Shown: positions 1 to 26,754 of the stretch, piece after piece | Layout: the number at the start of each line of letters is the position of its first letter | Position numbering within the stretch: position 1 is the stretch's first letter | NCBI RefSeq assembly: GCF_963921235.1 | Contig: NC_086108.1 | Coordinates: forward strand, 46,564,001 to 46,628,000 | Reading direction: 5' to 3' | DNA length: 64,000 bases | Origin: Mobula hypostoma | Lineage: Eukaryota | Notes under the pieces: model-generated | What the model was told of the DNA's origin: nothing | Seen by the model: only the letters and a program-made list of their open reading frames with translations | The model's database searches: none | Made by a program: the position numbers and the translations under genes

Positions 1-3000
1 TGCCCTTCACCCCCACACTCCCACTGTTCCCATCTGCCCTTCAACCCCACACTCCCACTGTTCCCATCTACCCTTCACCCTCACACTCCCACTGTTCCCA
101 TCTGCCCTTCACCCTCACACTCCCACTGTTCCCATCTGCCCTTCACCCTCACACTCCCACTGTTCCCATCTACACTTCACCCTCACACTCCCACTGTTCC
201 CATCTGCCCTTCACCCTCACACTCCCACTGTTCCCATCTACCCTTCACCCCAACACTCCCACTGTTCCCATCTGCCCTTCACCCCCACACTCCCACTGTT
301 CCCATCTGCCCTTCACCCTCACACTCCCACTGTTCCCATCTACCCTTCACCCCCACACTCCCACTGTTCCCATCCACCCTTCACCCTCACACTCCCACTG
401 TTCCCATCCACCCTTCACCCTCACACTCCCACTGTTCCCATCTATCCTTCACCCCCACACTCCCACTGTTCCCATCTACCCTTCACCATCACACTCCCAC
501 TGTTCCCATCTACCCTTCACCCTCACACTCCCAGTGTTCCCATCTACCCTTCACCCTCACACTCCCACTGTTCCCATCTACCCTTCACCCTCACGCTCCC
601 ACTGTTCCCATCTACCCTTCAGCCCCACACTCCCACTGTTCCCATCTGCCCTTCACCCTCACACTCCCACTGTTCCCATCTACCCTTCACCCTCACACTC
701 CCACTGTTCCCATCTACCATTCACCCTCACACTCCCACTGTTCCCATCTGCCCTTCACCCTCACACTCCCACTGTTCCCATCTGCCCTTCACCCTCACAC
801 TCCCACTGTTCCCATCTGCCCTTCACCCTCACACTCCCAATGTTCCCATCTGCCCTTCACCCCCACAGTCCCACTGTTCCCATCTCCCCTTCACCCTCAC
901 ACTCCCACTCTTCCCATCGACCCTTCACCTCCACACTCCCACTGTTCCCATCTACCATTCACCCTCACACTCCCACTGTTCCCATGTACCCTTCACCCTC
1001 ACACTCCCACTGTTCCCATCTACCCTTCACCCTCACACTCCCACTGTTCCCATCTACCATTCACCCTCACACTCCCACTGTTCCCATCTACCCTTCACCC
1101 ACACACTCCCACTGTTCCCATCTGCCCTTCACCCCCACACTCCCACTGTTCCCATCTAACCTTCACACTCACACTCCCACTGATCCCATCTACCCTTCAC
1201 CCGCACACTCCCACTGTACCTCATCTGCCCTTCACCCGCACACTCCCACTGTTCCCAAATGCCCTTCACCCGCACACTCCCACTGTTCCCAAGTGCCCTT
1301 CACCCACACATTCCCACTGTTCCCATCTGCCCTTCACCCTCACACTCCCACTGTTCCCATCTACCCTTCACCCTCACACTCCCACTGTTCCCATCTGCCC
1401 TTCACCCCCACACTCCCACTGTTCCCATCTGCCCTTCACCCTCACACTCCCACTGTTCCCATCTACCCTTCACCCTCACACTCCCACTGTTCCCATCTGC
1501 CCTTCACCCCCACACTCCCACTGTTCCCATCTGCCCTTCACCCTCACACTCCCACTGTTCCCATCTACCCTTCACCCGCACACTCCCACTGTTCCCATCT
1601 GCCCTTCACCCTCACACTCCCACTGTTCCCATCTGCCCTTCACCCCCACACTCCCACTGTTCCCATCTATCCCTCACCCCCACACTCCCACTGTTCCCAT
1701 CTACCCTTCACCCTCACACTCCCACTGTTCCCATCTGCCCTTCACCCTCACACTCCCACTGTTCCCATCTGCCCTTCACCCTCACATTCCCACTGTTCCC
1801 ATCTACACTTCACCCTCACACTCCCACTGTTCCCATCTGCCCTTCACCCTCACACCACCACTGTACCCATCTGCCCTTCACCCTCACACTCCCACTGTTC
1901 CCATCTGCCCTTCACCCTCACACTCCCACTGTTCCCATCTGCCCTTCACCCTCACACTCCCACTGTTCCCATCTACCCTTCACCCTCACACTCCCACTGT
2001 TCCCATCTGACCTTCACCCTCACACTCCCACTGTTCCCACCCGCCCTTCACACTCACACTCGCACTGTTCCTATCCACCCTTCACCCCCACACTCCCACT
2101 GTTCCCACCTACCCTTCACCCGCACATTCCCACTATTCCCATCTGCCCTTCACCCTCACACTCCCACTGTTCCCATCTGCCCTTCACCCCTCACACTCCC
2201 ACTGTTCCCATCTATCCTTCACCCTCACACTCCCACTGTTCCCATCTGCCCTTCACCCCCACACTCGCACGGTTCCCATCAGCCCTTCACCCTCACACTC
2301 CCACTGTTCCCATCTACCATTCACCCTCACACTCCCACTGTTCCCATCTGCCCTTCACCCCCACACTCCCACTGTTCCCATCTACCCTTCACCCCCACAC
2401 TCCCACTGTTCCCATCTACCCTTCACCCTCACACTCCCACTGTTCCCATCTGCCCTTCACCCCCACACTCCCACGGTTCCCATCTGCCCTTCACCCTCAC
2501 ACTCCCACTGTTCCCATCTACCCTTCACCCTCACACTCCCACTGTTCCCATCTACCCTTCACCCTCACACTCCCACTGTTCCCATCTGCCCTTCACCCTC
2601 ACACTCCCACTATTCCCATCTGACCTTCACCCTCACACTCCCACTGTTCCCACCTGCCCTTCACACTCACACTCGCATTGTTCCCATCCACCCTTCACCG
2701 CCACACTCCCACTGTTCCCATCTGCCCTTCACACTCACACTCCCACTGATCCCATCTACCCTTCACCCGCACACTCCCACTGTTCCCATCTGCCATTCAC
2801 CCTCACACTCCCACTGTTCCCATCTGCCCTTCACCCCCACACTCCCACTGTTCCCATCTATCCTTCACCCTCACACTCCCACTGTTCCCATCTGCCCTTC
2901 ACCCCCACACTCCCACGGTTCCCATCTGCCCTTCACCCTCACACTCCCACTGTTCCCATCTACCCTTCACCCGCACATTCCCACTGTTCCCATCTGCCCT

Positions 3001-6000
3001 TCACCCTCACACTCCCACTGTTCCCATCTGCCCTTCACCCCCACACTCCCACTGTTCCCATCTATCCTTCACCCCCACACTCCCACTGTTCCCATCTACC
3101 CTTCACCCTCACACTCCCACTGTTCCCATCTGCCCTTCACCCCCACACTCCCACTGTTCCCATCTGCCCTTCACCCTCACACTCCCACTGTTCCCATCTG
3201 CCCTTCACCCGCACACTCCCACTGTTCCCATCTGCCCTTCACACCCACACTCCCACTGTTCCCATCTACCCTTCACCCTCACACTCCCACTGTTCCCATC
3301 TACCCTTCACCCTCACACTCCCACTGTTCCCATCTACCCTTCAGCCCCACACTCCCACTGTTCCCATCTACCCTTCACCCTCACACTCCCACTGTTCCCA
3401 TCTACCCTTCACCCTCACACTCCCACTGTTCCCATCTACCCTTCAGCCCCACACACCCACTGTTCCCATCTGCCCTTCACCCTCACACTCCCACTGTTCC
3501 CATCTACCCTTCACCCTCACACTCCCACTGTTCCCATCCACCATTCACCCTCACACTCCCACTGTTCCCATCTGCCCTTCACCCTCACACTCCCACTGTT
3601 CCCATCTGCCCTTCACCCCCACACTCCCACGGTTCCCATCTACCCTTCACCCTCACACCTCCACTGTTCCCATCTGCCCTTCACCCTCACACTCCCTCTG
3701 TTCCCATCTGCCCTTCACCCCCACACTCCCACGGTTCCCATCTGCCCTTCACCCCCACACTCCCACTGTTCCCATCTACCATTCACCCTCACACTCCCAC
3801 TGTTCCCATCTACCCTTCACCCTCACACTCCCACTGTTCCCATCTGCCCTTCACCCTCACACTCCCACTGTTCCCATCTACCATTCACCCTCACACTCCC
3901 ACTGTTCCCATCTACACTTCACCCCAACACTCCCACTGTTCCCATCTGCCCTTCAGCCCCACACTCCCACTGTTCCCATCTGCCCTTCACACTCACACTC
4001 CCACTGATCCCATCTACCCTTCACCCTCACACTCCCACTGTTCCCATCTACCCTTCAGCCCCACACTCCCACTGTTCCCATCTGCCCTTCACCCTCACAC
4101 TCCCACTGTTCCCATCTACCCTTCACCCTCACACTCCCACTGTTCCCATCCACCATTCACCCTCACACTCCCACTGTTCCCATCTGCCCTTCACCCTCAC
4201 ACTCCCACTGTTCCCATCTGCCCTTCACCCCCACACTCCCACTGTTCCCATCTACCCTTCACCCTCACACCTCCACTGTTCCCATCTGCCCTTCACCCTC
4301 ACACTCCCACTGTTCCCATCTGCCCTTCACCCCCACACTCCCACGGTTCCCATCTGCCCTTCACCCCCACACTCCCACTGTTCCCATCTACCATTCACCC
4401 TCACACTCCCACTGTTCCCATCTACCCTTCACCCTCACACTCCCACTGTTCCCATCTGCCCTTCACCCTCACACTCCCACTGTTCCCATCTACCATTCAC
4501 CCTCACACTCCCACTGTTCCCATCTACACTTCACCCCAACACTCCCACTGTTCCCATCTGCCCTTCAGCCCCACACTCCCACTGTTCCCATCTGCCCTTC
4601 ACACTCACACTCCCACTGTTCCCATCTACCCTTCACCCGCACACTCCCACTGTTCCCATCTGCCCTTCACCCGCACACTCCCACTGTTCCCAAATGCCCT
4701 TCACCCGCACACTCCCACTGTTCCCAAGTTCCCTTCACACGCACATTCCCACTGTTCCCATCTACCCTTCAACCTTACACTCCCACTGTTCCCATCTGCC
4801 GTTCACCCCACACTCCCACTGTTCCCATCTACCCTTCACCCTCACACTCCCACTGTTCCCATCTGCCCTTCACCCCCGCACTCCCACTGTTCCCACCCGC
4901 CCTTCACACTCACACTCGCACTGTTCCCATCTACCATTCACCCTCACACTCCCACTGTTCCCATCTGCCCTTCACCCTCACACTCCCACTGTTCCCATCT
5001 ACCCTTCACCCGCACATTCCCACTGTTCCCATCTGCCCTTCACCCTCACACTCCCACTGTTCCCATCTGCCCTTCACCCCCACACTCCCACTGTTCCCAT
5101 CTATCCTTCACCCCCACACTCCCACTGTTCCCATCTACCATTCACCCTCACACTCCCACTGTTCCCATCTGCCCTTCACCCTCACACTCCCACTGTTCCC
5201 ATCTGCCCTTCACCCTCACACTCCCACTGTTCCCATCTACCCTTCACCCTCACACTCCCACTGTTCCCATCTACCATTCACCCTCACACTCCCACTGTTC
5301 CCATCTGCCCTTCACCCTCACACTCCCACTGTTCCCATCTACCATTCACCCTCACACTCCCACTGTTCCCATCTGCCCTTCACCCTCACACTCCCACTGT
5401 TCCCATCTGCCCTTCACCCTCACACTCCCACTGTTCCCATCTGCCCTTCACCCTCACACTCCCACTGTTCCCATCTGCCCTTCACCCTCACACTCCCACT
5501 GTTCCCATCTGCCCTTCACCCCCACATTCCCACTGTTCCCATCTACCCTTCACCCTCAGACTCCCAGTTCCCATCTACCCTTCACCCCAACACTCCCACT
5601 GTTCCCATCTACCCCTCACCCTCACACTCCCAGTTCCCATCTACCCTTCACACTCACACTCCCACTATTCCCATCTACCCTTCACCCCCACACTCCAGCT
5701 GTTCCCATCTGCCCTTCACCCCCACACTCCCACTGTTCCCATCCACCCTTCACCCCCACACTCTCCACTGTTCCCATCTGCCCTTCACACTCACACTCCC
5801 ACTGATCCCATCTACCCTTCACCCGCACACTCCCACTGTTCCCATCTGCCCTTCACCCTCACACTCCCACTGTTCCCATCTGCCCTTCACCCCCACACTC
5901 CCACTGTTCCCATCTATCCTTCACCCCCACACTCCCACTGTTCGCATCTACCATTCACCCTCACACTCCCACTGTTCCCACCTGCCCTTCACCCTCACAC

Positions 6001-9000
6001 TCCCACTGCTCCCATCTGCCCTTCACCCTCACACTCCCACTGTTCCCATCTGCCCTTCACCCTCACATTCCCACTGTTCCCATCTACCCTTCACCCTCAC
6101 ACTCCCACTGTTCCCATCTGCCCTTCACCCTCACACCTCCACTGTACCCATCTGTCCTTCACCCTCACACTCCCACTGTTCCCATCTGCCCTTCACCCTC
6201 ACACTCCCAGTGTTCCCATCTGCCCTTCACCCTCACACTCCCACTGATCCCATCTACCCTTCACCCCCACACTACCACTGTTCCCATCTACCCTTCACCC
6301 TCACACTCCCACTGTTCCCATCTGCCCTTCACCCTCACAGTCCCACTGTTCCCATCTACCCTTCACCCCAACACTCCCACTGTTCCCATCTACCCTTCAC
6401 CCTCAGACTCCCAGTTCCCATCTACCCTTCACCCCAACACTCCCACTGTTCCCATCTACCCTTCACCCTCACACTCCCAGTTCCCATCTACCCTTCACCC
6501 CCACACTCCCACTGTTCCCATCCACCCTTCACCCTCACACTCCCACTATTCCCATCTATCCTTCACCCCCACACTCCCACTGTTCCCATCTGCCCTTCAC
6601 CCCCACACCTCCACTGTTCCCATCTGCCCTTCACCCTCACACTCCCACTATTCCCATCTGACCTTCACCCTCACACTCCCACTGTTCCCACCCGCCCTTC
6701 ACACTCACACTCGCACTGTTCCCATCTACCCTTCACCCCCACACTCCCACTGTTCCCATCTGCCCTTCACACTCACACTCCCACTGATCCCATCTACCCT
6801 TCACCCGCACACTCCCACTGTTCCCACGTGCCCTTCACCCGCACATTCCCACTGTTCCCATCTGCCCTTCACCCTCACACTACCACTGTTCCGATCTGCC
6901 CTTCACCCCCACACTCCCACTGTTCCCATCTACCCTTCACCCTCACACTCCCACTGTTCCCATCTACCCTTCACCCCCACACTACCACTATTCCAATCTG
7001 CCCTTCACCCCCACACTCCCACTGTTCCCATCTGCCCTTCACCCTCACATTCCCACTGTTCCCATCTACCCTTCACCCTCACACTCCCACTGTTCCCATC
7101 TGCCCTTCACCCTCACACCTCCACTGTACCCATCTGCCCTTCACCCTCACACTCCCAGTGTTCCCATCTGCCCTTCACCCTCACACTCCCACTGATACCA
7201 TCTACCCTTCACCCCCACACTACCACTGTTCCCATCTACCATTCACCCTCACACTCCCACTGTTCCCATCTGCCCTTCACCCTCACAGTCCCACTGTTCC
7301 CATCTACCCTTCACCCCAACACTCCCACTGTTCCCATCTACCCTTCACCCTCAGACTCCCAGTTCACATCTACCCTTCACCCCAACACTCCCACTGTTCC
7401 CATCCACCCTTCACCCTCACACTCCCACTATTCCCATCTACCCTTCACCCCCACACTCCCACTGTTCCCATCTGCCCTTCACCCCCACGCCTCCACTGTT
7501 CCCATCTGCCCTTCACCCTCACACTCCCACTATTCCCATCTGACCTTCACCCTCACACTCCCACTGTTCCCATCTACCCTTCACCCTCACACTCCCACTG
7601 CTCCCATCTGCCCTTCACCCCCACACTCCCACTGTTCCCATCTGCCCTTCACCCTCACACTCCCACTGTTCCCATCTGCCCTTCACCCTCACACTCCCAC
7701 TATTCCCATCTGACCTTCACCCTCACACTCCCACTGTTCCCACCCGCCCTTCACACTCACACTCGCACTGTTCCCATCTACCCTTCACCCCCACACTCCC
7801 ACTGTTCCCATCTGCCCTTCACACTCACACTCCCACTGTTCCCATCTGCCCTTCACACTCACACTCCCACTGTTCCCATCTGCCCTTCACCCGCCCACTC
7901 CCACTGTTCCCACGTGCCCTTCACCCGCACATTCCCACTGTTCCCATCTGCCCTTCACCCTCACACTACCACTGTTCCGATCTGCCCTTCACCCCCACAC
8001 TCCCACTGTTCTCATCTACCCTTCACCCTCACACTCCCACTGTTCCCATCTACCCTTCACCCCCACACTACCACTATTCCGATCTGCCCTTCACCCCCAC
8101 ACTCCCACTGTTCCCATCTGCCCTTCACCCTCACATTCCCACTGTTCCCATCTACCCTTCACCCTCACACTCCCACTGTTCCCATCTGCCCTTCACCCTC
8201 ACACCTCCACTGTACCCATCTGCCCTTCACCCTCACACTCCCACTGTTCCCATCTGCCCTTCACCCTCACACTCCCAGTGTTCCCATCTGCCCTTCACCC
8301 TCACACTCCCACTGATACCATCTACCCTTCACCCCCACACTACCACTGTTCCCATCTACCCTTCACCCTCACACTCCCACTGTTCCCATCTGCCCTTCAC
8401 CCTCACAGTCCCACTGTTCCCATCTACCCTTCACCCCAACACTCCCACTGTTCCCATCTACCCTTCACCCTCAGACTCCCAGTTCACATCTACCCTTCAC
8501 CCCAACACTCCCACTGTTCCCATCCACACTTCACCCTCACACTCCCACTATTCCCATCTACCCTTCACCCCCACACTCCCACTGTTCCCATCTGCCCTTC
8601 ACCCCCACGCCTCCACTGTTCCCATCTGCCCTTCACCCTCACACTCCCACTATTCCCATCTGACCTTCACCCTCACACTCCCACTGTTCCCATCTACCCT
8701 TCACCCTCACACTCCCACTGCTCCCATCTGCCCTTCACCCCCACACTCCCACTGTTCCCATCTGCCCTTCACCCTCACACTCCCACTGTTCCCATCTGCC
8801 CTTCACCCTCACACTCCCAATGTTCCCATCTACCCTTCACCCCCACACTACCACTGTTCCCATCTGCCCTTCACCCCCACACTACCACTGTTCGCATCTA
8901 TCCTTCACCCCCACACTCCCACTGTTCCCATCTACCCTTCACCCTCACACTCCGACTGTTCCTATCTGCCCTTCACCTTCACACTCCCACTGTTCCCATC

Positions 9001-12000
9001 TGCCCTTCACCCTCACAATCCCACTGTTCCCATCTACCATTCACCCTCACCCTCCCACTGTTCCCATCTGCCCTTCACCCTCACACTCCCACTATTCCCA
9101 TCTGACCTTCACCCTCACACTCCCACTGTTCCCATCTACCCTTCACCCTCACACTCCCACTGCTCCCATCTGCCCTTCACCCCCACACTCCCACTGTTCC
9201 CATCTGCCCTTCACACTCACACTCCCACTGTTCCCATCTACCCTTCACCCTCACACTCCCAATGTTCCCATCTACCCTTCACCCCCACACTACCACTGTT
9301 CCCATCTGCCCTTCACCCCCACACTACCACTGTTCGCATCTATCCTTCACCCCCACACTCCCACTGTTCCCATCTACCCTTCACCCTCACACTCCCACTG
9401 TTCCTATCTGCCCTTCACCTTCACACTCCCACTGTTCCCATCTGCCCTTCACCCTCACATTCCCACTGTTCCCATCTACCATTCACCCTCACACTCCCAC
9501 TGTTCCCATCTCCCATTCACCCTCACCCTCCCACTGTTCCCATCTGCCCTTCACCCTCACACTCCCACTGTTTCCATCTGCCCTTCACCCTCACATTCCC
9601 ACTGTTCCCATCTACCATTCACCCTCACACTCCCACTGTTCCCATCTACCATTCACCCTCACAACTCCACTGTTCCCATCTGCCCTTCACCCTCACACTC
9701 CCACTGTTCCCATCTGCCCTTCACCCTCACATTCCCACTGTTCCCATCTACCATTCACCCTCACACTCCCACTGTTCCCATCTACCATTCACCCTCACAC
9801 TCCCACTGTTCCCATCTGCCGTTCACCTTCACACTCCCACTGTTCCCATCTACCATTCACCCTCACCCTCCCACTGTTCCCATCTGCCCTTCACCCTCAC
9901 ACTCCCACTGCTCCCATCTGCCCTTCACCCTCACACTCCCACTGTTCCCATCTGCCCTTCACCCTCACATTCCCACTGTTCCCATCTACCCTTCACCCTC
10001 ACACTCCCACTGTTCCCATCTGCCCTTCACCCTCACATCTCCACTGTACCCATCTGCCCTTCACCGTCACACTCCCACTGTTCCCATCTGCCCTTCACCC
10101 CCACACTCCCACGGTTCCCATCTGCCCTTCACCCCCACACTCCCACTGTTCCCATCTACCCTTCAGCCCCACACTCCCACTGTTCCCATCTACCCTTCAC
10201 CCTCACACTTCCACTGTTCCCATCTGCCCTTCACCCGCACACTCCCACTGTTCCCATCTACCCTTCACCCCAACACTCCCACTGTTCCCATCTGCCCTTC
10301 ACCCCCACACTCCCACTGTTCCCATCTATCCTTCACCCCCACACTCCCACTGTTCCCCTCTACCCTTCACCCTCACACTCCCACTGTTCCCATCTGCCCT
10401 TCACCCTCACAGTCCCACTGTTCCCATCTACCCTTCACCCCCACACTCCCACTGTTCCCATCTACCCTTCACCCTCACACTCCCACTGTTCCCATCCACC
10501 CTTCACCCTCACACTCCCACTGTTCCCATCTACCCTTCACCCCCACACTCCCACTTTTCCCATCTGCCCTTCACCCCCACACTCCCACGGTTCCCATCTG
10601 CCCTTCACCCTCACACTCCCACTGTTCCCATCTGCCCTTCACCCTCACACTCCCACTGTTCCCATCTGCCCTTCACCCGCACACTCCCACTGTTCCCATC
10701 TGCCCTTCACACCCACACTCCCACTGTTCCCATCTACCATTCACCCTCATACTCCCACTGTTCCCATCTACCCTTCACCCTCACACTCCCACTGTTCCCA
10801 TCTACCCTTCAGCCCCACACTCCCACTGTTCCCATCTGCCCTTCACCCTCACACTCCCACTGTTCCCATCTACCCTTCACCCTCACACTCCCACTGTTCC
10901 CATCTACCATTCACCCTCACACTCCCACTGTTCCCATCTGCCCTTCACCCTCACACTCCCACTGTTCCCATCTGCCCTTCACCCTCACACTCCCCCTGTT
11001 CCCATCTGCCCTTCACCCTCAGACTCCCACTGTTCCCATCTGCCCTTCACCCCCACACTCCCACTGTTCCCATCTACCCTTCACCCCCACACTCCCACTG
11101 TTCCCATCTACCCTTCACCCTCACACTCCCACTGTTCCCATCTGCCCTTCACCCCCACACTCCCACGGTTCCCATCTGCCCTTCACCCGCACACTCCACT
11201 GTTCCCATCTACCCTTCACCCCCACACTCCCACTGTTCCCATCTACCATTCACCCTCACACTCCCACTGTTCCCATCTACCCTTCACCCTCACACTCCCA
11301 CTGTTCCCATCTGCCCTTCACCCTCACACTCCCACTGTTCCCATCTGCCCTTCACCCCCACACTCCCACTGTTCCCATCGACCATTCACCCTCACACTCC
11401 CACTGTTCCCATCTACCCTTCACCCTCACACTCCCACTGTTCCCATCTGCCCTTCACCCTCACACTCCCACTGTTCCCATCTGCCCTTCACCCTCACACT
11501 CCCACTGTTCCCATCTACCATTCACCCTCACACTCCCACTGTTCCCATCTGCCCTTCACCCTCACACTCCCACTGTTCCCATCTGCCCTTCACCCCCACA
11601 CTCCCACGGTTCCCATCTGCCCTTCACCCTCACACTCCCACTGTTCCCATCTACCCTTCACCCCCACACTCCCACTGTTCCCATCTACCATTCACCCTCA
11701 CACTCCCACTGTTCCCATCTACCCTTCACCCTCACACTCCCACTGTTCCCATCTGTCCTTCACCCTCACACTCCCACTGTTCCCATCTGCCCTTCACCCT
11801 CACACTCCCACTGTTCCCCTCAGCCCGTAACCCTGAAACTCCTACTGTTCCCATCTACCCTTCACCCACACACTGACACTGTTCCTATCTGCCCTTCACC
11901 CGCACACTCCCAGTGTTCCCATCTACACTTCACCCTCACACTCCCACTGTTCCCATCTGCCCTTCACCCACACACTCCCACTGTTTACATCTACCCTTCA

Positions 12001-15000
12001 CCCTCACACTCCCACTGTTCACATCTGCCCTTCACCCCCACACTCCCACTGTTCCCATCTACCATTCACCCTCACACTCCCACTGTTCCCATCTCCCATT
12101 CACCCTCACCCTCCCACTGTTCCCATCTGCCCTTCACCCTCACACTCCCACTGTTTCCATCTGCCCTTCACCCTCACATTCCCACTGTTCCCATCTACCA
12201 TTCACCCTCACACTCCCACTGTTCCCATCTACCATTCACCCTCACACCTCCACTGTTCCCATCTGCCCTTCACCCTCACACTCCCACTGTTCCCATCTGC
12301 CCTTCACCCTCACATTCCCACTGTTCCCATCTACCATTCACCCTCACACTCCCACTGTTCCCATCCACCATTCACCCTCGCACTCCCACTGTTCCCATCT
12401 GCCGTTCACCTTCACACTCCCACTGTTCCCATCTACCATTCACCCTCACCCTCCCACTGTTCCCATCTGCCCTTCACCCTCACACTCCCACTGCTCCCAT
12501 CTGCCCTTCACCCTCACACTCCCACTGTTCCCATCTGCCCTTCACCCTCACATTCCCACTGTTCCCATCTACCCTTCACCCTCACACTCCCACTGTTCCC
12601 ATCTGCCCTTCACCCTCACACAACCACTGTACCCATCTGCCCTTCACCGTCACACTCCCACTGTTCCCATCTGCCCTTCACCCCCACACTCCCACGGTTC
12701 CCATCTGCCCTTCACCCCCACACTCCCACTGTTCCCATCTACCCTTCAGCCCCACACTCCCACTGTTCCCATCTACCCTTCACCCTCACACTTCCACTGT
12801 TCCCATCTGCCCTTCACCCGCACACTCCCACTGTTCCCATCTACCCTTCACCCCAACACTCCCACTGTTCCCATCTGCCCTTCACCCCCACACTCCCACT
12901 GTTCCCATCTATCCTTCACCCCCACACTCCCACTGTTCCCATCTACCCTTCACCCTCACACTCCCACTGTTCCCATCTGCCCTTCACCCTCACAGTCCCA
13001 CTGTTCCCATCTACCCTTCACCCCCACACTCCCACTGTTCCCATCTACCCTTCACCCTCACACTCCACTGTTCCCATCCACCCTTCACCCTCACACTCCC
13101 ACTGTTCCCATCTACCCTTCACCCCCACACTCCCACTGTTCCCATCTGCCCTTCACCCCCACACTCCCACGGTTCCCATCTGCCCTTCACCCTCACACTC
13201 CCACTGTTCCCATCTGCCCTTCACCCTCACACTCCCACTGTTCCCATCTGCCCTTCACCCGCACACTCCCACTGTTCCCATCTGCCCTTAACACCCACAC
13301 TCCCACTGTTCCCATCTACCATTCACCCTCACACTCCCACTGTTCCCATCTACCCTTCACCCTCACACTCCCACTGTTCCCATCTACCCTTCAGCCCCAC
13401 ACTCCCACTGTTCCCATCTGCCCTTCACCCTCACACTCCCACTGTTCCCATCTACCCTTCACCCTCACACTCCCACTGTTCCCATCTACCATTCACCCTC
13501 ACACTCCCACTGTTCCCATCTGCCCTTCACCCTCACACTCCCACTGTTCCCATCTGCCCTTCACCCCCACACTCCCACTGTTCCCATCTGCCCTTCACCC
13601 TCACACTCCCACTGTTCCCATCTACCCTTCACCCCCACACTCCCACTGTTCCCATCTACCATTCACCCTCACACTCCCACTGTTCCCATCTACCCTTCAC
13701 CCTCACACTCCCACTGTTCCCATCTGTCCTTCACCCTCACACTCCCACTGTTCCCATCTGCCCTTCACCCGCACACTCCCACTGTTCCCATCAGCCCGTA
13801 ACCCCCACACTCCCACTGTTCCCATCTGCCCTTCACCCCCACACTCCCACTGTTCCCATCTATCCTTCACCCCCACACTCCCACTGTTCCCATCTACCAT
13901 TCACCCTCACACTCCCACTGTTCCCATCTGCCCTTCACCCTCACACTCCCACTGTTCCCATCTGCCCTTCACCCTCACACTCCCACTGTTCCCATCTGCC
14001 CTTCACCCTCACACTCCCACTGTTCCCATCTACCCTTCACCCTCACACTCCCACTGTTCCCATCTGCCCTTCACCCTCACACTCCCACTGTTCCCATCTG
14101 CCCTTCACCCTCACACTCCCACTGTTCCCATCTGCCCTTCACCCTCACACTCCCACTGTTCCCATCTGCCCTTCACCCTCACACTCCCACTGTTCCCATC
14201 TACCCTTCACCCCCACACTCCCACTGTTCCCATCTGCCCTTCACCCTCACACTCCCACTGTTCCCATCTGCCCTTCACCCTCACACTCCCACTGTTCCCA
14301 TCTACCCTTCACCCCACACTCCCACTGTTCCCATCTACCCTTCACCCTCACACTCCCACTGTTCCCATCTACCCTTCACCCCACACTCCCACTGTTCCCA
14401 TCTACCCTTCACCCTCACACTCCCACTGTTCCCATCTACCCTTCACCCCCACACTCCCACTGTTCCCATCCACCCTTCACCCTCACACTCCCACTGTTCC
14501 CATCTATCCTTCACCCCCACACTCCCACTGTTCCCATCTGCCCTTCACCCCCACACCTCCACTGTTCCCATCTGCCCTTCACCCTCACACTCCCACTATT
14601 CCCATCTGACCTTCACCCTCACACTCCCACTGTTCCCATCTGCCCTTCACCCTCACACTCCCACTGTTCCCATCTACCCTTCACCCCCACACTCCCACTG
14701 TTCCCATCTGCCCTTCACCCTCACACTCCCACTGTTCCCATCTACCCTTCACCCTCACACTCCCACTGTTCCCATCTGCCCTTCACCCTCACACTCCCAC
14801 TGTTCCCATCTGCCCTTCACCCTCACACTCCCACTGTTCCCATCTGCCCTTCACCCCCACACTCCCACTGTTCCCATCTACCCTTCACCCTCACACTCCC
14901 ACTGTTCCCATCTACCCTTCACCCACACACTCCCACTGTTCCCATCTGCCCTTCACCCCCACACTCCCACTGTTCCCATCTGCCCTTCACCCTCACACTC

Positions 15001-18000
15001 CCACTGTTCCCATCTACCCTTCACCCTCACACTCCCACTGTTCCCATCTGCCCTTCACCCTCACACCTCCACTGTTCCCATCTGCCCTTCACCCTCACAC
15101 TCCCACTGTTCCCATCTGCCCTTCACCCTCACACTCCCACTGTTCCCATCTACCCTTCACCCCCACACTCCCACTGTTCCCATCTACCCTTCACCCTCAC
15201 ACTCCCACTGTTCCCATCTGCCCTTCACCCTCACAGTCCCACTGTTCCCATCTACCCTTCACCCCAACACTCCCACTGTTCCCATCTACCCTTCACCCTC
15301 AGACTCCCAGTTCACATCTACCCTTCACCCCAACACTCCCACTGTTCCCATCCACCCTTCACCCTCACACTCCCACTATTCCCATCTACCCTTCACCCCC
15401 ACACTCCCACTGTTCCCATCTGCCCTTCACCCCCACGCCTCCACTGTTCCCATCTGCCCTTCACCCTCACACTCCCACTGTTCCCATCTGACCTTCACCC
15501 TCACACTCCCACTGTTCCCATCTACCCTTCACCCTCACACTCCCACTGTTCCCATCTGCCCTTCACCCTCACACTCCCACTGTTCCCATCTGCCCTTCAC
15601 CCTCACACTCCCACTGTTCCCATCTGCCCTTCACCCTCACACTCCCACTGTTCCCATCTACCATTCACCCTCACACTCCCACTGTTCCCATCTGCCCTTC
15701 ACACTCACACTCCCACTGTTCCCATCTACCCTTCACCCTCACACTCCCACTGTTCCCATCTACCCTTCACCCTCACACTCCCACTGTTCCCATCTGCCCT
15801 TCACCCTCACACTCCCACTGTTCCCATCTGCCCTTCACCCGCACACTCCCACTGTTCCCATCTGCCCTTCACCCTCACACTCCCACTGTTCCCATCTGCC
15901 CTTCACCCCCACACTCCCACTGTTCCCATCTACCCTTCACCCTCACACTCCCACTGTTCCCATCTGCCCTTCACCCCCACACTCCCACTGTTCCCATCTG
16001 CCCTTCACCCCCGCACATTCCCACTGTTCCCATCTGCCCTTCACCCTCACACTCCCACTGTTCCCATCTACCCTTCACCCTCACACTCCCACTGTTCCCA
16101 TCTGCCCTTCACCCTCACACTCCCACTGTTCCCATCTGCCCTTCACCCTCACACTCCCACTGTTCCCATCTGCCCTTCACCCTCACACTCCCACTGTTCC
16201 CATCTGCCCTTCACCCTCACACTCCCACTGTTCCCATCTACCCTTCACCCCCACACTCCCACTGTTCCCATCTACCCTTCACCCTCACACTCCCACTGTT
16301 CCCATCTGCCCTTCACCCTCACACTCCCACTGTTCCCATCTACCCTTCACCCCAACACTCCCACTGTTCCCATCTACCCTTCACCCACAACTCCCAGTTC
16401 CCATCTACCCTTCACCCCACACTCCCACTGTTCCCATCTACCCTTCACCCCCACACTCCCACTGTTCCCATCTGCCCTTCACCCCCACACTCCCACTGTT
16501 CCCATCTGCCCTTCACCCTCACACTCCCACTGTTCCCATCTGCCCTTCACCCTCACACTCCCACTGTTCCCATCTACCCTTCACCCTCACACTCCCACTG
16601 TTCCCATCTACCCTTCACCCCCACACTCCCACTGTTCCCATCTGCCCTTCACCCTCACACTCCCACTGTTCCCATCTGCCCTTCACCCTCACACTCCCAC
16701 TGTTCCCATCTACCCTTCACCGTCACACTCCCACTGTTCCCATCTGCCCTTCACCCCCACACTACCACTGTTCCCATCTATCCTTCACCCCCACACTCCC
16801 ACTGTTCCCATCTACCCTTCACCCCCACACTCCCACTGTTCCCATCTGCCCTTCACCCTCACACTCCCACTGTTCCCATCTGCCCTTCACCCTCACACTC
16901 CCACTGTTCCCATCTACCATTCACCCTCACCCTCCCACTGTTCCCATCTGCCCTTCACCCTCACACTCCCACTGTTCCCATCTGACCTTCACCCTCACAC
17001 TCCCACTGTTCCCATCTACCCTTCACCCTCACACTCCCACTGTTCCCATCTGCCCTTCACCCCCACACTCCCACTGTTCCCATCTGCCCTTCACCCTCAC
17101 ACTCCCACTGTTCCCATCTACCCTTCACCCTCACACTCCCACTGTTCCCATCTACCCTTCACCCTCACACTCCCACTGTTCCCATCTGCCCTTCACCCCC
17201 ACACTCCCACTGTTCCCATCTACCCTTCACCCCCACACTCCCACTGTTCCCATCTACCCTTCACCCTCACACTCCCACTGTTCCCATCTGCCCTTCACCC
17301 TCACACTCCCACTGTTCCCATCTGCCCTTCACCCTCACACTCCCACTGTTCCCATCTACCATTCACCCTCACACTCCCACTGTTCCCATCTCCCATTCAC
17401 CCTCACACTCCCACTGTTCCCATCTGCCCTTCACCCTCACACTCCCACTGTTCCCATCTGCCCTTCACCCTCACATTCCCACTGTTCCCATCTACCATTC
17501 ACCCTCACACTCCCACTGTTCCCATCTACCATTCACCCTCACACCTCCACTGTTCCCATCTGCCCTTCACCCTCACACTCCCACTGTTCCCATCTGCCCT
17601 TCACCCTCACATTCCCACTGTTCCCATCTACCATTCACCCTCACACTCCCACTGTTCCCATCTACCATTCACCCTCGCACTCCCACTGTTCCCATCTGCC
17701 GTTCACCTTCACACTCCCACTGTTCCCATCTACCATTCACCCTCACCCTCCCACTGTTCCCATCTGCCCTTCACCCTCACACTCCCACTGTTCCCATCTG
17801 CCCTTCACCCTCACACTCCCACTGTTCCCATCTGCCCTTCACCCTCACATTCCCACTGTTCCCATCTACCCTTCACCCTCACACTCCCACTGTTCCCATC
17901 TGCCCTTCACCCTCACACCTCCACTGTACCCATCTGCCCTTCACCGTCACACTCCCACTGTTCCCATCTGCCCTTCACCCCCACACTCCCACGGTTCCCA

Positions 18001-21000
18001 TCTGCCCTTCACCCTCACACTCCCACTGTTCCCATCTACCCTTCACCCCCACACTCCCACTGTTCCCATCTACCCTTCACCCTCACACTCCCACTGTTCC
18101 CATCTGCCCTTCACCCGCACACTCCCACTGTTCCCATCTACCCTTCACCCCAACACTCCCACTGTTCCCATCTGCCCTTCACCCCCACACTCCCACTGTT
18201 CCCATCTATCCTTCACCCCCACACTCCCACTGTTCCCATCTACCCTTCACCCTCACACTCCCACTGTTCCCATCTGCCCTTCACCCTCACACTCCCACTG
18301 TTCCCATCTACCCTTCACCCCCACACTCCCACTGTTCCCATCTACCCTTCACCCTCACACTCCCACTGTTCCCATCCACCCTTCACCCTCACACTCCCAC
18401 TGTTCCCATCTACCCTTCACCCTCACACTCCCACTGTTCCCATCTGCCCTTCACCCCCACACTCCCACTGTTCCCATCTGCCCTTCACCCTCACACTCCC
18501 ACTGTTCCCATCTGCCCTTCACCCTCACACTCCCACTGTTCCCATCTGCCCTTCACCCGCACACTCCCACTGTTCCCATCTGCCCTTCACACCCACACTC
18601 CCACTGTTCCCATCTACCCTTCACCCTCACACTCCCACTGTTCCCATCTACCCTTCACCCTCACACTCCCACTGTTCCCATCTACCCTTCAGCCCCACAC
18701 TCCCACTGTTCCCATCTGCCCTTCACCCTCACACTCCCACTGTTCCCATCTACCCTTCACCCTCACACTCCCACTGTTCCCATCTACCATTCACCCTCAC
18801 ACTCCCACTGTTCCCATCTGCCCTTCACCCTCACACTCCCACTGTTCCCATCTGCCCTTCACCCTCACACTCCCACTGTTCCCATCTGCCCTTCACCCTC
18901 ACACTCCCACTGTTCCCATCTGCCCTTCACCCCCACACTCCCACTGTTCCCATCTACCCTTCACCCCCACACTCCCACTGTTCCCATCTACCCTTCACCC
19001 TCACACTCCCACTGTTCCCATCTGCCCTTCACCCCCACACTCCCACTGTTCCCATCTGCCCTTCACCCCCACACTCCCACTGTTCCCATCTACCCTTCAC
19101 CCCCACACTCCCACTGTTCCCATCTACCATTCACCCTCACACTCCCACTGTTCCCATCTACCCTTCACCCTCACACTCCCACTGTTCCCATCTGCCCTTC
19201 ACCCTCACACTCCCACTGTTCCCATCTGCCCTTCACCCCCACACTCCCACTGTTCCCATCGACCATTCACCCTCACACTCCCACTGTTCCCATCTACCCT
19301 TCACCCTCACACTCCCACTGTTCCCATCTACCCTTCACCCTCACACTCCCACTGTTCCCATCTACCCTTCACCCTCACACTCCCACTGTTCCCATCGACC
19401 ATTCACCCTCACACTCCCACTGTTCCCATCTGCCCTTCACCCTCACACTCCCACTGTTCCCATCTGCCCTTCACCCTCACACTCCCACTGTACCCATCTG
19501 CCCTTCACCCTCACACTCCCACTGTTCCCATCTGCCCTTCACCCCCACACTCCCACTGTTCCCATCTGCCCTTCACCCTCACACTCCCACTGTTCCCATC
19601 TACCCTTCACCCCCACACTCCCACTGTTCCCATCTACCCTTCACCCTCACACTCCCACTGTTCCCATCTACCCTTCACCCTCACACTCCCACTGTTCCCA
19701 TCTGTCCTTCACCCTCACACTCCCACTGTTCCCATCTGCCCTTCACCCTCACACTCCCACTGTTCCCCTCAGCCCGTAACCCTGAAACTCCTACTGTTCC
19801 CATCTACCCTTCACCCACACACTGACACTGTTCCTATCTGCCCTTCACCCGCACACTCCCACTGTTCCCATCTACCCTTCACCCTCACACTCCCACTGTT
19901 CCCATCTGCCCTTCACCCTCACACTCCCACTGTTCCCATCTACCCTTCACCCTCACACTCCCACTGTTCCCATCTGCCCTTCACCCCCACACTCCCACTG
20001 TTCCCATCTACCCTTCACCCTCACACTCCCACTGTTCCCATCTCCCATTCACCCTCACACTCCCACTGTTCCCATCTGCCCTTCACCCTCACACTCCCAC
20101 TGTTCCCATCTGCCCTTCACCCTCACACTCCCACTGTTCCCATCTACCATTCACCCTCACACTCCCACTGTTCCCATCTACCCTTCACCCTCACACTCCC
20201 ACTGTTCCCATCTGCCCTTCACCCTCACACTCCCACTGTTCCCATCTGCCCTTCACCCTCACACTCCCACTGTTCCCATCTACCATTCACCCTCACACTC
20301 CCACTGTTCCCATCTACCCTTCACCCTCACACTCCCACTGTTCCCATCTGCCCTTCACCCTCACACTCCCACTGTTCCCATCTGCCCTTCACCCTCACAC
20401 TCCCACTGTTCCCATCTGCCCTTCACCCTCACACTCCCACTGTTCCCATCTGCCCTTCACCCTCACACTCCCACTGTTCCCATCTGCCCTTCACCCTCAC
20501 ACTCCCACTTTTCCCATCTACCCTTCACCCACACACTCCCACTGTTCCCATCTGCCCTTCACCCTCACACTCCCACTGTTCCCATCTGCCCTTCACCCTC
20601 ACACTCCCACTGTTCCCATCTGCCCTTCACCCTCACACTCCCACTGTTCCCATCTACCCTTCACCCTCACACTCCCACTGTTCCCATCTACCCTTCACCC
20701 TCACACTCCCACTGTTCCCATCTGCCCTTCACCCGCACACTCCCACTGTTCCCATCTACCCTTCACCCTCACACTCCCACTGTTCCCATCTGCCCTTCAC
20801 CCCCACACTCCCACTGTTCCCATCTGCCCTTCACCCCCACACTCCCACTGTTCCCATCTACCCTTCACCCTCACACTCCCACTGTTCCCATCTGCCCTTC
20901 ACCCCCACACTCCCACTGTTCCCATCTACCCTTCACCCCCACACTCCCACTGTTCCCATCTACCCTTCACCCTCACACTCCCACTGTTCCCATCCACCCT

Positions 21001-23188
21001 TCACCCTCACACTCCCACTGTTCCCATCTACCCTTCACCCCCACACTCCCACTGTTCCCATCTGCCCTTCACCCCCACACTCCCACTGTTCCCATCTGCC
21101 CTTCACCCTCACACTCCCACTGTTCCCATCTGCCCTTCACCCTCACACTCCCACTGTTCCCATCTGCCCTTCACCCGCACACTCCCACTGTTCCCATCTG
21201 CCCTTCACACCCACACTCCCACTGTTCCCATCTACCATTCACCCTCACACTCCCACTGTTCCCATCTACCCTTCACCCTCACACTCCCACTGTTCCCATC
21301 TACCCTTCACCCCCACACTCCCACTGTTCCCATCTGCCCTTCACCCTCACACTCCCACTGTTCCCATCTACCCTTCACCCTCACACTCCCACTGTTCCCA
21401 TCTACCCTTCACCCTCACACTCCCACTGTTCCCATCTGCCCTTCACCCTCACACTCCCACTGTTCCCATCTGCCCTTCACCCTCACACTCCCACTGTTCC
21501 CATCTGCCCTTCACCCTCACACTCCCACTGTTCCCATCTACCCTTCACCCCCACACTCCCACTGTTCCCATCTACCATTCACCCTCACACTCCCACTGTT
21601 CCCATCTACCCTTCACCCTCACACTCCCACTGTTCCCATCTGTCCTTCACCCTCACACTCCCACTGTTCCCATCTGCCCTTCACCCTCACACTCCCACTG
21701 TTCCCCTCAGCCCGTAACCCTGACACTCCTACTGTTCCCATCTGCCCTTCACCCGCACACTCCCACTGTTCCCATCGGCCCGTAACCCCCTCACTCCCAC
21801 TGTTCCTATCTGCTCTTCATCCACACACTCCCACTGTTCCCATCTGCCCTTCACACCCACACTCCCACTGTTCCCATCTACCCTTCACCCTCACACTCCC
21901 ACTGTTCCCATCTGCCCTTCACCCACACACTCCCACTGTTCCCATCGACCCTTCACCCTTATACTCCCACTGTTCCCATTTATCCTTCACCCCCACACTC
22001 CCACTGTTCCCCTCAGCCCGTAACCCTGACACTCCTACTGTTCCCATCTGCCCTTCACCCACACACTCCCACTGTTCCCATCTGCCCTTCACCCTCACAC
22101 TCCCACTGTTCCCATCTGCCCTTCACCCTCACACTCCCACTGTTCCCATCTGCCCTTCACCCTCACACTCCCACTGTTCCCATCTACCCTTCACCCTCAC
22201 ACTCCCACTGTTCCCATCTGCCCTTCACCCTCACACTCCCACTGTTCCCATCTGCCCTTCACCCTCACACTCCCACTGTTCCCATCTGCCCTTCACCCTC
22301 ACACTCCCACTGTTCCCATCTGCCCTTCACCCCCACACTCCCACTGTTCCCATCTACCCTTCACCCCCACACTCCCACTGTTCCCATCTACCCTTCACCC
22401 TCACACTCCCACTGTTCCCATCTGCCGTTCACCCCCACACTCCCACTGTTCCCATCTACCCTTCACCCTCACACTCCCACTGTTCCCATCTACCCTTCAC
22501 CTTCACACTCCCACTGTTCCCATCTGCCCTTCACCCTCACACTCCCACTGCTCCCATCTGCCCTTCACCCTCACACTCCCACTGCTCCCATCTGCCCTTC
22601 ACCCTCACACTCCCACTGTTCCCATCTGCCCTTCACCCTCACATTCCCACTGTTCCCATCTACCCTTCACCCTCACACTCCCACTGTTCCCATCTGCCCT
22701 TCACCCTCACACTCCCACTGTTCCCATCTGCCCTTCACCGTCACACTCCCACTGTTCCCATCTGCCCTTCACCCCCACACTCCCACTGTTCCCATCTGCC
22801 CTTCACCCCCACACTCCCACTGTTCCCATCTACCCTTCAGCCCCACACTCCCACTGTTCCCATCTACCCTTCACCCGCACACTCCCACTGTTCCCGTCTG
22901 CCCTTCACCCCCACACTACCACTGTTCCCATCTATCCTTCACCCCCACACTCCCACTGTTCCCATCTACCCTTCACCCCCACACTCCCACTGTTCCCATC
23001 TGCCCTTCACCCCCACACTCCCACTGTTCCCATCTGCCCTTCACCCCCACACTCCCACTGTTCCCATCCACCCTTCACCCCCACACTCCCACTGTTCCCA
23101 TCCACCCTTCACCCCCACACTCCCACTGTTCCCATCCACCCTTCACCCTCAGACTCCCACTGTTCCCATCTATCCTTCACCCCCACAC
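1..23188. repeat. 34-bp tandem minisatellite, ~680 copies, consensus TGCCCTTCACCCTCACACTCCCACTGTTCCCATC; continues past the window start
   Basis: Unit read directly. Common variants are TGCC/TACC/TACCA and CCTC/CCCC/CCGC, with occasional 1-2 nt deletions. Ends abruptly at 23188 against a CR1 tail. Confidence 0.99.
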
Positions 23189-23330
23189 ATCATAGAATCA
23201 TAGAAATCTGCAGCACATTACAGGCTGTTCAGCCCACAATGTTGGGCCGACTGTGTAACCTTTTCTGGACAACACCTAGAATTTCGCTCACAGATAGCCA
23301 TGTATTTTTCTAAGCTCCATGTACCTATCT
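23189..23330 (-). mobile_element. CR1 LINE 3' end fragment
   Basis: CATAGAATCATAGAA is the reverse complement of a CR1-type TTCTATG tail. Sequence resembles the CR1 3' end at 52937-53070. Confidence 0.8.
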
Positions 23331-23365
23331 ATTTTTTATATGATGATCTAGTGTTGTTTAGTTAC

Positions 23366-23752
23366 CTTGGTAACACAGTGGCCTCTTCCTTTTCTTGCAA
23401 GGCTCATCATTCCACTTTCCTGAATTTTCTCCCACATTGATGTACATTTCCACACAGTCTTCATTAGCCTTTCCATTGTTGGGTTCACCACGAGCCCAGT
23501 TCTCGCCTATATCCTCCAATTTGCGACGTGTTCCAATCCAGGTCCAGGTGTTGTTGCGCTTCCTCAAACCAATCCAGACGTGACCCCTCGTACTTGACAA
23601 ATGGTTTACCAGGAAATCAATTTCCTCCTTATTCTGTATTGCCACCATGTCCGTGTATCTTCTCCGACAGTAAGCCCTTGCCGTAGCCCAAATCATGTTT
23701 TTATCGGAGTAATGGTATAACCAGCCATGTGCACCTCCTAACATCAGAACCT
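23366..23752 (-). CDS. Selectin C-type lectin exon (P/L-selectin-like architecture), 387 nt, phase 1-1
   Basis: Translates to WLYHYSDKNMIWATARAYC...WIGLRK...NWARGEPNNGKANEDCVEMYI...GKWNDEPC...LCYQ. C19, C90, C109, C117, EPN and WND fall at selectin positions. Acceptor TTTACAG at 23753-4, donor G|GTAACT at 23365. Confidence 0.96.
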
Positions 23753-24529
23753 CTGTAAACCAAGAACATTGTACCAACATTTTTAATCTGTTGCTGATGG
23801 GTTAAAGAGAAAGGTAAATATGATTAATGAATTTATTCCTCCCAGAAGCAAGTATTAGGATTGGGTGTACAATTAAGCCTTGAGTATTAATTGCAACCAC
23901 AGCTGTCAATTGGTTGCTATTATTAAGCCTGATTAGCACAAGCATAGACTAATTAATCAAACAGATTTCTTTTTCATGTTCTGTGACATCCTTTAAGGAT
24001 ACATTCAGCCAGCCTGGTATGCTCCCTCATGTGGATGAAAAAGAGAGATGAAAAATTGGGCGAGGGAGAGAGGGACACAGAGTCTAGAGCAAAGATCCGG
24101 ATCCAATTCCTTTGTTTGAAAACTAGAACTTTGTTTAATTTACAGTCATTCTTCAGTCACTCATCCAGTTGCATCTTCTCTCTATCCATCATCTCCTCCC
24201 TTACCTACCTATATTTCTTTCCCACTCCCTTTCACTATTTTCTTTTCTTTCCTCACAAAGAAAATTAGGTCCTGTGCACTTTATCATGAAAACTTCGATG
24301 GTGTATAAGCTTGATTCTAAATTGCAGAATGCTACACCAACAGCATTGGGGGTATATCTTCATCTGAATGTCTTCAGTAGTTCAAGAACATGGCTCACTG
24401 TCATCTTGAGAATAATTAGTTGGTAATTCTATATACCTCATCTATTTGTCTTGCTATTGAAGATCTTCAAAAAAGCACACAATAGATATTTCCTTCCCAT
24501 ATTGATTTCTCCTTACGGTCAATAAATTC

Positions 24530-26660: not shown

Positions 26661-26754
26661 CATAGATAATCACAGTTAATGTCAAGAATCGAAATATCTT
26701 ATCTTGTATCTGTGGATATTGCATGTATGGATGGTTCACACTACCACGGGATAC
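26661..26754 (-). CDS. Selectin exon 2 (signal peptide), 94 nt, phase 0-1
   Basis: TTCACATGCAG| acceptor and G|GTAAGA donor. Open frame VSRGSVNHPYMQYPQIQDKIFRFLTLTVIIY joins the lectin exon in frame (E-VLMLGGAHG-W), giving a hydrophobic core and an AHG cleavage site. Confidence 0.85.

Follow-up and report, generated by a model that had tools for sequence, protein, structure and literature searches.

Does a giant array of G-rich repeats inside an immune adhesion gene act on that gene, or is it simply carried along? This question is raised by a window of 64,000 nucleotides from the ray Mobula hypostoma (the whole stretch of DNA analysed here), which opens with such an array next to the exons of a selectin gene. 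The array adds to the giant tandem arrays of a repeat-rich ray genome; many regions of stingray genomes are reported to consist mostly of simple tandem repeats, with similar repeats in introns and intergenic DNA (10.1101/2025.06.08.657570). A literature search, with most subscription papers and supplements outside its scope, identified no paper about ray selectin introns or this array. The array is probably an intronic minisatellite of giant size, tolerated and not maintained by selection. Its significance is twofold: splicing in an expressed vertebrate gene apparently spans at least 15-23 kb of G-rich repeat, and the array is a caution that assemblies can smooth giant arrays.

The repeat array and its unit

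Tandem Repeats Finder reports the repeat as a single array with a period of 34 bp and 93% matches (Table 1), which is far beyond chance, and the repeat is real. The array starts at base 1 and is open at the left edge of the window, so that 23.2 kb is only its in-window portion. Its head-to-tail units fall within the ~10-60 bp of minisatellites (VNTRs), and it also has the interspersed variant units and block duplications of that class. The minus-strand consensus, in which four GGG tracts have loops of 6, 7, 4 and 5 nt, is identical to the unit quoted in the original prediction and contains no CpG. The 682 complete units comprise 143 types; four GGG tracts are kept in 489 units, three in 170, two in 22 and one in a single unit. 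A variant said to cost one tract (TACCATT) corresponds to C>A at position 5 on the plus strand and was indeed recovered, in 60/682 units. When the unit is aligned to itself at a shift of 8, 19/34 positions match.

Table 1. Coordinates of the features discussed in the text (positions within the 64,000-nt window).
Feature	Position	Strand	Remarks
34-bp minisatellite, 682.5 copies	1..23188	-	minus strand (selectin sense strand) G-rich, with 52.7% G and 78% purine
Internal tandem duplication, copy 1	6489..14436		~233-234 units with a 7,948-bp period; ends approximate
Internal tandem duplication, copy 2	14437..22354		ends approximate; 52 rare variants seen in copy 1 are missing
5'-truncated LINE 3' end	23189..23329	-	high-copy; its short tandem tail adjoins the first unit of the array
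Intron after the lectin exon, first 177 bp	23189..23365	-	GT donor at 23,365
Selectin C-type lectin exon	23366..23752	-	387 bp; Pfam Lectin_C, E=1.3e-24
Signal-lectin GT-AG intron	23753..26660	-	2,908 bp; joint 23,752/26,661 in RNA-like runs X10 and X12
Selectin signal-peptide exon	26661..26755	-	95 bp; 30/31 residues identical to P0016

A coding array was rejected, the plus-strand open frames being antisense to the gene and matching no known protein. The unit was also sought as a spurious protein: 8,000 scored candidates gave 1 match, at 40% identity, that is not a unit copy, 8,000 longer candidates gave none, and a further search gave 15 matches at 15-52% identity, of which the 9 inspected are unrelated repeats. 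Repeats are usually masked ahead of annotation, so that such a protein search is a weak test. In a metagenome scan, a 43-letter pattern of the unit found 0 loci and a 21-nt core found 2, neither with the array unit; Rfam gave 0 families at gathering score on the window.

Probable position within a selectin gene

As had been claimed, the array is very probably intronic; its host is an expressed P-selectin-like gene. A signal peptide and a selectin-type C-type lectin domain are encoded in two exons that are both on the minus strand, in agreement with the original prediction that this is the selectin sense strand. The best PDB matches of the lectin exon are L-, P- and E-selectin (E=1.7e-41 to 1e-37), with the next non-selectin at 3.5e-17, and the exon matches the P-selectin-like protein P0016 of Mobula birostris at 86%. 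The start codon is not in the signal exon and lies in an exon further upstream. Two probable RNA contigs contain the spliced lectin exon and cover the signal exon without differences; they come from runs X10 and X12, the two examined of four runs (X9-X12) whose RNA nature is presumed, none being recorded as RNA, and the joint between the two exons is absent from the DNA runs X1 and X8. Both contigs depart from the DNA at 23,366, the lectin donor, and run 1,439 nt more elsewhere. Splicing at this donor was seen with 0 differences in 2/2 RNA-like runs, and no such joint occurs in 2/2 DNA runs. Since a fully spliced junction is present, the array, which begins 177 bp into the intron following the lectin exon, is no block to the gene.

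The closest relative, P0016, has EGF, sushi and transmembrane domains. We infer that the next selectin exon lies beyond the array. It is highly unlikely that the array is outside this intron owing to a contig misjoin at the LINE stub or to a next exon located elsewhere. Such an error would fit the junction 23,188/23,189, which is bridged by no contig among those examined, the best single-copy contigs starting at 23,303 (source run) and 23,232 (organism B), and the exon past the array is not in the window data. Short-read unitigs are, however, expected to break at the end of a high-copy repeat, the run of the RNA contigs past the donor means that downstream exons exist, and no EGF or sushi exon was found anywhere in the window.

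G-quadruplex and R-loop potential

The original prediction had described a switch-like configuration that favours both R-loops and G-quadruplexes (G4s), and had suggested that the array could brake selectin elongation or be an instability hotspot, with possible i-motifs on the C-rich strand. Non-overlapping G3+N1-7 matches number 553 on the minus and 0 on the plus strand of the array, with 3 in the other 40.8 kb, and these matches and the four-tract units give the unit the G4 consensus expected of a G4-unstable minisatellite. The motif is only mildly beyond chance: among 20,000 shuffles of the unit, 9.1% contain a G3+N1-7 match and 7.8% at least four tracts, and its G4Hunter score of 1.18 is equalled or exceeded by 81% of 20,000 shuffles. 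The array has 0 matches to the short-loop motif (G3+N1-3); 2,321/2,532 gaps between G tracts measure 4-7 nt, and 26 measure 3 nt or less. In yeast, two reports tie G4-driven minisatellite instability to loops of 3 nt or less (PMC6614823, PMC5491262). An array selected for G4s would be expected to have G tracts that are more conserved than its loops, which is not seen here. Changed copies per site are 19.4 at tract C versus 16.7 at loop C (p=0.93), and variant events per site are 8.75 versus 10.0 (p=0.45); a second count of changes gave 12.25 for tracts versus 10.3 for loops, and the left array part alone 13.6 versus 11.7, in a comparison of 12 tract with 6 loop sites that has low power. For two units, ViennaRNA predicts an RNA G4 at 25 °C (-26.2 vs -6.0 kcal/mol) and a marginal one at 37 °C (-8.2 vs -4.0 kcal/mol). 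Judged from sequence, the G4 case for the array is weak, and with loops of 4-7 nt, no short-loop motif and tracts that vary as the loops do, the proposed G4 role is not supported.

R-loops over the array are predicted to be strongly favoured thermodynamically. The RNA:DNA hybrid preference of the sense strand is -0.30 kcal/mol per step, versus -0.013 +/- 0.049 for other 500-bp windows (lowest -0.19). By an approximate initiation rule, there are 783 G-cluster initiation-like sites on the sense strand of the array and 0 on the antisense strand, and G makes up at least 50.2% of every 500 nt tested, i.e., G clusters are followed by a long G-rich non-template zone as in R-loop-forming sequences. 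Of the switch-like configuration, the G-rich, hybrid-favouring sense and non-template strand is supported, while the G4 and switch components are not. Immunoglobulin (Ig) switch regions are defined by AID hot spots (AGCT/WGCW) together with non-template G-richness. AGCT occurs once in the 23.2-kb array versus 4.0 per kb outside, and WGCW 10 times versus 21.2 per kb outside; AID hot spots are thus almost absent, and the host is a selectin gene rather than the IgH locus upstream of constant exons. The likeness to Ig heavy-chain switch regions (PMC5971202) is that both are long, repetitive, intronic, non-template G-rich and R-loop-favouring.

Internal duplications and variant loss

In total, 15 significant duplicated blocks take in 385/682 array units, and an internal tandem duplication accounts for two long copies (Table 1). 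Copy 1 holds nested duplications of 13, 28, 32, 33 and 76 units, through which rare variants were kept and passed on. In 113 paired units, 52 variants occur only in the left copy 1 and 1 only in the right copy 2, and dating of the duplications by block divergence was dropped because the differences are one-sided. The loss of variants in copy 2 falls as their array-wide frequency rises (19/30, 23/44, 8/31, 4/17, 3/31 and 0/52), and position 2, which is split 368:308 array-wide, differs in 0/113 pairs, a result that speaks against random conversion between units. Among 38 lost variants, 16 were on a linked background found elsewhere, where 8.1 are expected if they were new (z=3.3); as this background is shared with copies elsewhere, many of the lost variants are old and were then lost. 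Hypermutation of the left copy alone as the source of the 52:1 asymmetry is weakened by this linkage test, and random unit-to-unit gene conversion was rejected, position 2 differing in 2/249 unit pairs versus ~50% of random pairs. Four-tract units make up 242/374 of the array left of ~12.7 kb versus 247/308 right of it.

These observations suggest that the array right of ~12.7 kb (the right-hand 10 kb) has probably been partly smoothed towards consensus by assembly error correction, and an artefact in part, with majority correction of the right-hand portion, is on balance the better account of the asymmetry, the frequency trend, the linked backgrounds and the uniformity of position 2 within pairs. 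Over-correction is a known hazard of large tandem repeats (PMC12016036). Rarer variants are also younger, however, so that new mutations confined to the left copy account for some of the trend. It is possible, though doubtful, that the 7.9-kb copy is a false duplication in which one stretch was put in a second time, as itself or as its other allele; the visible array would then be ~15 kb, not 23 kb. Against an artefact, the copies are out of register (offsets 232, 233 and 234, with a 33-unit extra block) and are not one read repeated. As the one-sided variant loss is likely over-correction, the array length and its fine structure are uncertain.

Substitution spectrum

Transitions account for 19/64 (about 30%) of the non-redundant differences between blocks, versus 15/22 in dispersed repeats of the window (p=0.002) and 44/65 and 99/152 in two contig-comparison controls (p=2e-5 and 3e-6). 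With each substitution type counted once, a transition is no likelier than a transversion (ratio 0.84-1.05, where ~4 is expected at 65-68% transitions). On the G-rich strand, G>T occurs at 18/18 such sites and G>A at 14/18. The array could accordingly be viewed as a point-mutation hot spot whose G-rich strand, displaced by transcription, is damaged or miscopied by error-prone repair, with a transversion-rich spectrum and frequent block duplications as the outcome; this is unlikely, and it may coexist with a tolerated minisatellite. The transition share below all three controls, the G>T changes and the inheritance of rare variants through nested duplications speak for it, as does a shark pedigree in which all 4 validated de novo mutations were transitions (PMC10587355). 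The controls are themselves limited, however: the contig comparisons include CpG sites, the lack of CpG in the array unit lowers its transitions, and the CpG-free control amounts to only 22 changes from 2 alignments. In addition, the spectrum is flat at A:T sites of the array too, the excess of G>T fades when the threshold is raised to 2 and 3 copies (15 and 9/18, vs 12 and 11 for G>C), and read errors or correction artefacts could contribute.

Origin of the array and rival explanations

In the favoured reading of a tolerated minisatellite, the 34-bp unit would have arisen from a G-rich sub-motif of ~8 nt, from which the four GGG tracts would follow, and have been amplified in place just past the LINE stub in the selectin intron. 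Growth would have come from blocks of 13 to ~234 units that were repeatedly copied out of register, presumably through unequal exchange or slipped repair synthesis. RNA polymerase II would read through the array and the spliceosome would remove it, while weak, long-looped G4s could form in the nascent RNA or the displaced strand. The array would be tolerated because its sense strand lacks both polyadenylation signals (0 AATAAA, 0 ATTAAA) and a pyrimidine tract that a cryptic exon could use (longest pyrimidine run 4 nt). Nothing shows selection for G4s or R-loops in the array. Several findings run against a purely tolerated array, namely, a hybrid preference that is extreme and well below every 500-bp window elsewhere, a transition share unlike ordinary neutral change, and the RNA G4s predicted at 25 °C, if marginal at 37 °C.

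Functional readings of the array fare less well. A length-variable brake, in which R-loops and repeated G4s slow RNA polymerase II over at least 23 kb and so tune selectin dose or induction, is improbable. It would draw on the sense-strand hybrid preference, the initiation-like sites with their sustained G content and the 553 G4 motifs, and it has an analogue in the human CACNA1C TRACT repeat, whose long alleles (~24 kb) show lower expression in fibroblasts and testis (PMC13131567), which also bears against a purely tolerated array. On the other side, the G tracts are not conserved over the loops, the loops are of 4-7 nt, and a spliced transcript is present in 2/2 RNA-like runs, although contig depth does not measure expression. 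Still more remote is the idea that the array both records transcription stress in an immune adhesion gene and acts as a dial for it: during transcription the G-rich strand would stay open over tens of kb, a transversion-rich record would be written into it through damage or error-prone repair, which would also drive block duplications, and array length would set selectin output. In the boldest form of this idea, the one-sided loss of rare variants in the copy nearest the exon would be real and reflect polar, homology-selective conversion that removes rare variants and keeps common ones. If a brake or a transcription-linked spectrum were true, the array would be a natural test of the dose and mutation effects of R-loop-prone introns outside Ig switch regions.

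An origin from a mobile element, with a retroelement piece amplified in place or brought in behind the LINE tail, is rather unlikely. The first unit directly follows the tail of the LINE stub, which we take to be CR1; the stub has a very high summed contig depth and matches 52,942-53,069 as well as 42,490-42,549, where an RVT_1-bearing element ends. Squamates are reported to have SINE-derived satellites, short-unit tandem arrays that likewise sit directly beside a retroposon fragment and have grown from retroelement pieces (PMC10702118), whereas the array unit has no source element in the window. Neither of the two other LINE-end copies in the window adjoins the unit, and the best local score of the unit in the other 40.8 kb, 37, is reached by 8/40 shuffled units and is not significant, in a comparison that covers the window, with the far flank and the rest of the genome outside it. 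A resemblance to the unit in a C/T-rich dispersed repeat (near 24.6 kb) was rejected, since its score of 31 falls in the range of shuffled units.

Comparison with known arrays

By description, the array resembles TRACT, a 30-bp VNTR in intron 3 of CACNA1C, in its ~30-bp unit, intronic position and mosaic of variant units; gene and lineage are unrelated, and each unit of the ray array has four sense-strand GGG tracts. TRACT ranges from 3 to >30 kb, with a bimodal length and no overt instability (PMC13131567). Transcription through a long satellite-like intron is shared with Drosophila Y-loop genes, whose introns extend to megabases and depend on a dedicated expression programme (PMC6508621); the array measures tens of kb, with no sign of such a programme. 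The human minisatellites CEB1 and CEB25 have a G-rich unit of similar size with G triplets near the G4 consensus, but their instability needed, beside short loops, a high thermal stability (PMC5491262, PMC6614823). The array is far longer than the CEB1 and CEB25 test arrays of 19-42 units.

The array and its host gene

A 34-bp unit, repeated in tandem 682.5 times at 93% matches, fills the window's first 23,188 bases; the array's left edge is open. Wrap-around alignment resolved 682 complete units into 143 types, with a mean of 1.54 differences per unit and an insertion or deletion in 18 units only; unit positions 2 (368 G : 308 A) and 13 (448 T : 185 C) are common polymorphisms. No description of this locus was found in a literature search.

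To the right of the array lie two exons of a selectin-like gene (see table). Among solved structures, the lectin exon matches L-, P- and E-selectin best, with E-values from 1.7e-41 to 1e-37 (next family 3.5e-17), and the proteins closest to its domain are ray P-selectin-like, from Mobula birostris (86% identity), Hemitrygon (77%) and Hypanus (73%). The M. birostris protein is 97% identical over the signal exon, and this contrast with the lectin domain may reflect fast lectin change or a paralogue; the flanks differ from those of a related organism at only ~2.3% of bases. Together, the protein matches place the window in a ray near Mobula.

In four probable RNA runs from the same organism, the share of sequence words recovered from a 1,171-bp stretch was 0.32, the exon making up one third of that stretch. 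Two of these runs, both from one study, and two DNA runs were aligned to 23,189-29,200. In each aligned probable RNA run, one contig (2,066 and 2,167 nt) carries the signal and lectin exons spliced together, a GT-AG intron of 2,908 bp having been removed, with 0 differences in either contig, and this joint was not found in either DNA run over the same stretch. Both contigs depart from the window DNA exactly at 23,366, at a GT donor, and run on for 1,439 nt off the aligned stretch, which together with the joint indicates that the gene is expressed and spliced onward. The 145 and 246 nt that they hold 5' of the signal exon are likewise not on 23,189-29,200, and thus point to a first exon further upstream or outside the window. 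The original prediction had called the array intronic; the used donor and the sequence that follows it agree with this. Neither an EGF nor a sushi exon scored anywhere in the 64-kb window. We infer strongly, if short of proof, that the array very probably lies inside the intron after the lectin exon, the next exon being outside the window.

Features annotated in the window besides the array
Feature	Position	Strand	Remarks
Selectin C-type lectin exon	23,366-23,752	minus	387 bp; separated from the array by 177 bp
Selectin signal exon	26,661-26,755	minus	30/31 residues identical to Mobula birostris P-selectin-like protein
Truncated LINE 3' end	23,189-23,329		presumably CR1; tail directly adjoins first array unit
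Near full-length LINE	38,501-42,549	plus	ORF1 open stretches; RVT_1 E=6.3e-35
Transposase remnant	60,128-61,190	plus	two frames; DDE_3 E=1.9e-14; presumably Tc1/mariner-like
Short tandem repeats	58,981-59,324 and 61,932-62,352		periods 7-26, 20, 67, 50, 24 bp

G-quadruplex and R-loop potential

On the minus strand, the sense strand of the gene, the consensus unit has the four GGG tracts that had been described, their loops being 6, 7, 4 and 5 nt long, and all four tracts are kept in 489/682 units. The G-quadruplex (G4) rule G3+N1-7 likewise holds as claimed, with 553 non-overlapping matches on the minus strand of the array and 0 on the plus strand. The mean G4Hunter score is 1.22. Gaps between tracts are nearly all 4-7 nt, and no G4 motif with loops of at most 3 nt occurs in the array, which sets it apart from minisatellites assayed in yeast, reported to be destabilised only by short-looped, thermally stable G4s (PMC6614823, PMC5491262). 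Among 20,000 shuffled units, 9.1% also yielded a G4 motif and 81% scored as high as the unit; a motif so frequent among shuffles is largely a result of composition. In a low-power conservation test of 12 tract against 6 loop sites of the same base, tract positions were no better conserved. The G4 motif claimed for each unit is present, but it is weak by published criteria. The unit matches itself at 19/34 positions at a shift of 8, suggesting that an 8-nt G-rich building block lies behind it. For 25 °C ViennaRNA gave a clear RNA G4 prediction and for 37 °C a marginal one, so that folding in nascent RNA of a fish would be possible.

The sense strand of the array is 52.7% G, and its RNA:DNA hybrid is favoured by 0.30 kcal/mol per step, against a mean of 0.013 ± 0.049 and an extreme of 0.19 in the rest of the window. 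The view of the G-rich sense strand as R-loop-favouring was thus right as far as sequence goes, and the array counts both as a minisatellite and as an R-loop-prone sequence. Such sequence is shared with Ig switch regions, but the proposed likeness ends there: AGCT occurs once in 23.2 kb of array versus 4.0 per kb outside, and the array is not a switch region. Neither AATAAA nor ATTAAA, nor any pyrimidine run longer than 4 nt, is present on the array sense strand, which accordingly has nothing to prompt premature termination and no cryptic acceptor. Its 423 donor-like GTGAG words, with no acceptor-like pyrimidine tract, may be candidate weak U1 or G-run binding sites.

Growth of the array and probable assembly smoothing

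Fifteen significant duplicated blocks take in 385/682 units at offsets of 13 to 291 units, the largest being a tandem copy of ~233 units with a period of 7,948 bp. Random unit conversion was rejected as the source of block differences, since position 2 differs in only 2/249 unit pairs. A related organism's contig spans 23,232-24,578, so the LINE stub next to the array is common to both. No source sequence for the 34-bp unit was found in the remainder of the 64-kb window. Simple tandem repeats are described as abundant in elasmobranch genomes in two reports (10.1101/2025.06.08.657570, PMC10620051). A metagenome contig (900-1096) carries a distinct C-rich minisatellite with a similar period, and the 21-nt stretch it has in common with the array unit is probably convergence.

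In the large duplication, 113 units pair well between the copies; across them, 52 variants occur in the left copy only and 1 in the right copy only. Absence from the right copy affects 19/30 variants in the rarest class and falls with frequency to 0/52 for position 2, while 16/38 missing variants lie on their usual linked background elsewhere (8.1 expected if they were new mutations). Per unit, the variant load is 0.94 left of ~12.7 kb and steps down there to 0.47, and the one-sided loss of rare variants spans 12,700-22,354; two duplicated blocks at or left of the step differ evenly (7 vs 6). Majority-vote correction of reads in repeats is described in PMC12016036, and assembly over-correction of this kind is probably behind the loss, as its pattern fits such correction better than any biological process we can name. 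The 7.9-kb copy may itself be a false duplication, although its two copies differ in register, which argues against an assembly artefact.

Variant spectrum and possible effects on the gene

Transitions make up 19/64 non-redundant block differences in the array, versus 15/22 differences between dispersed repeats in the window and 44/65 and 99/152 in two control sets from contigs on 23,189-29,200. When each substitution type is counted once, which removes the copying effect, transitions and transversions are equally likely in the array; on its G-rich strand, G>T is found at 18/18 sites. Single-stranded DNA damage or error-prone repair at a transcription-linked mutation hot spot would fit both features, but the flat spectrum could also reflect read errors, small controls or the unit's lack of CpG. 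The G>T lead weakens once single-copy variants are dropped; we regard such a hot spot as unlikely. The closest known case is TRACT in human CACNA1C, an intronic VNTR with a 30-bp rather than a 34-bp unit, which reaches 30 kb and is stable in living humans, its long alleles showing lower expression in some tissues (PMC13131567). Both the anatomy of the array and a length effect thus have precedent. The length-variable brake on selectin elongation that was originally put forward is nonetheless quite improbable in our judgement, and the array is most likely a tolerated one.

Elsewhere in the window, one part of the near full-length LINE was judged by eye to be endonuclease-like; the element is interrupted by frameshifts and stops.
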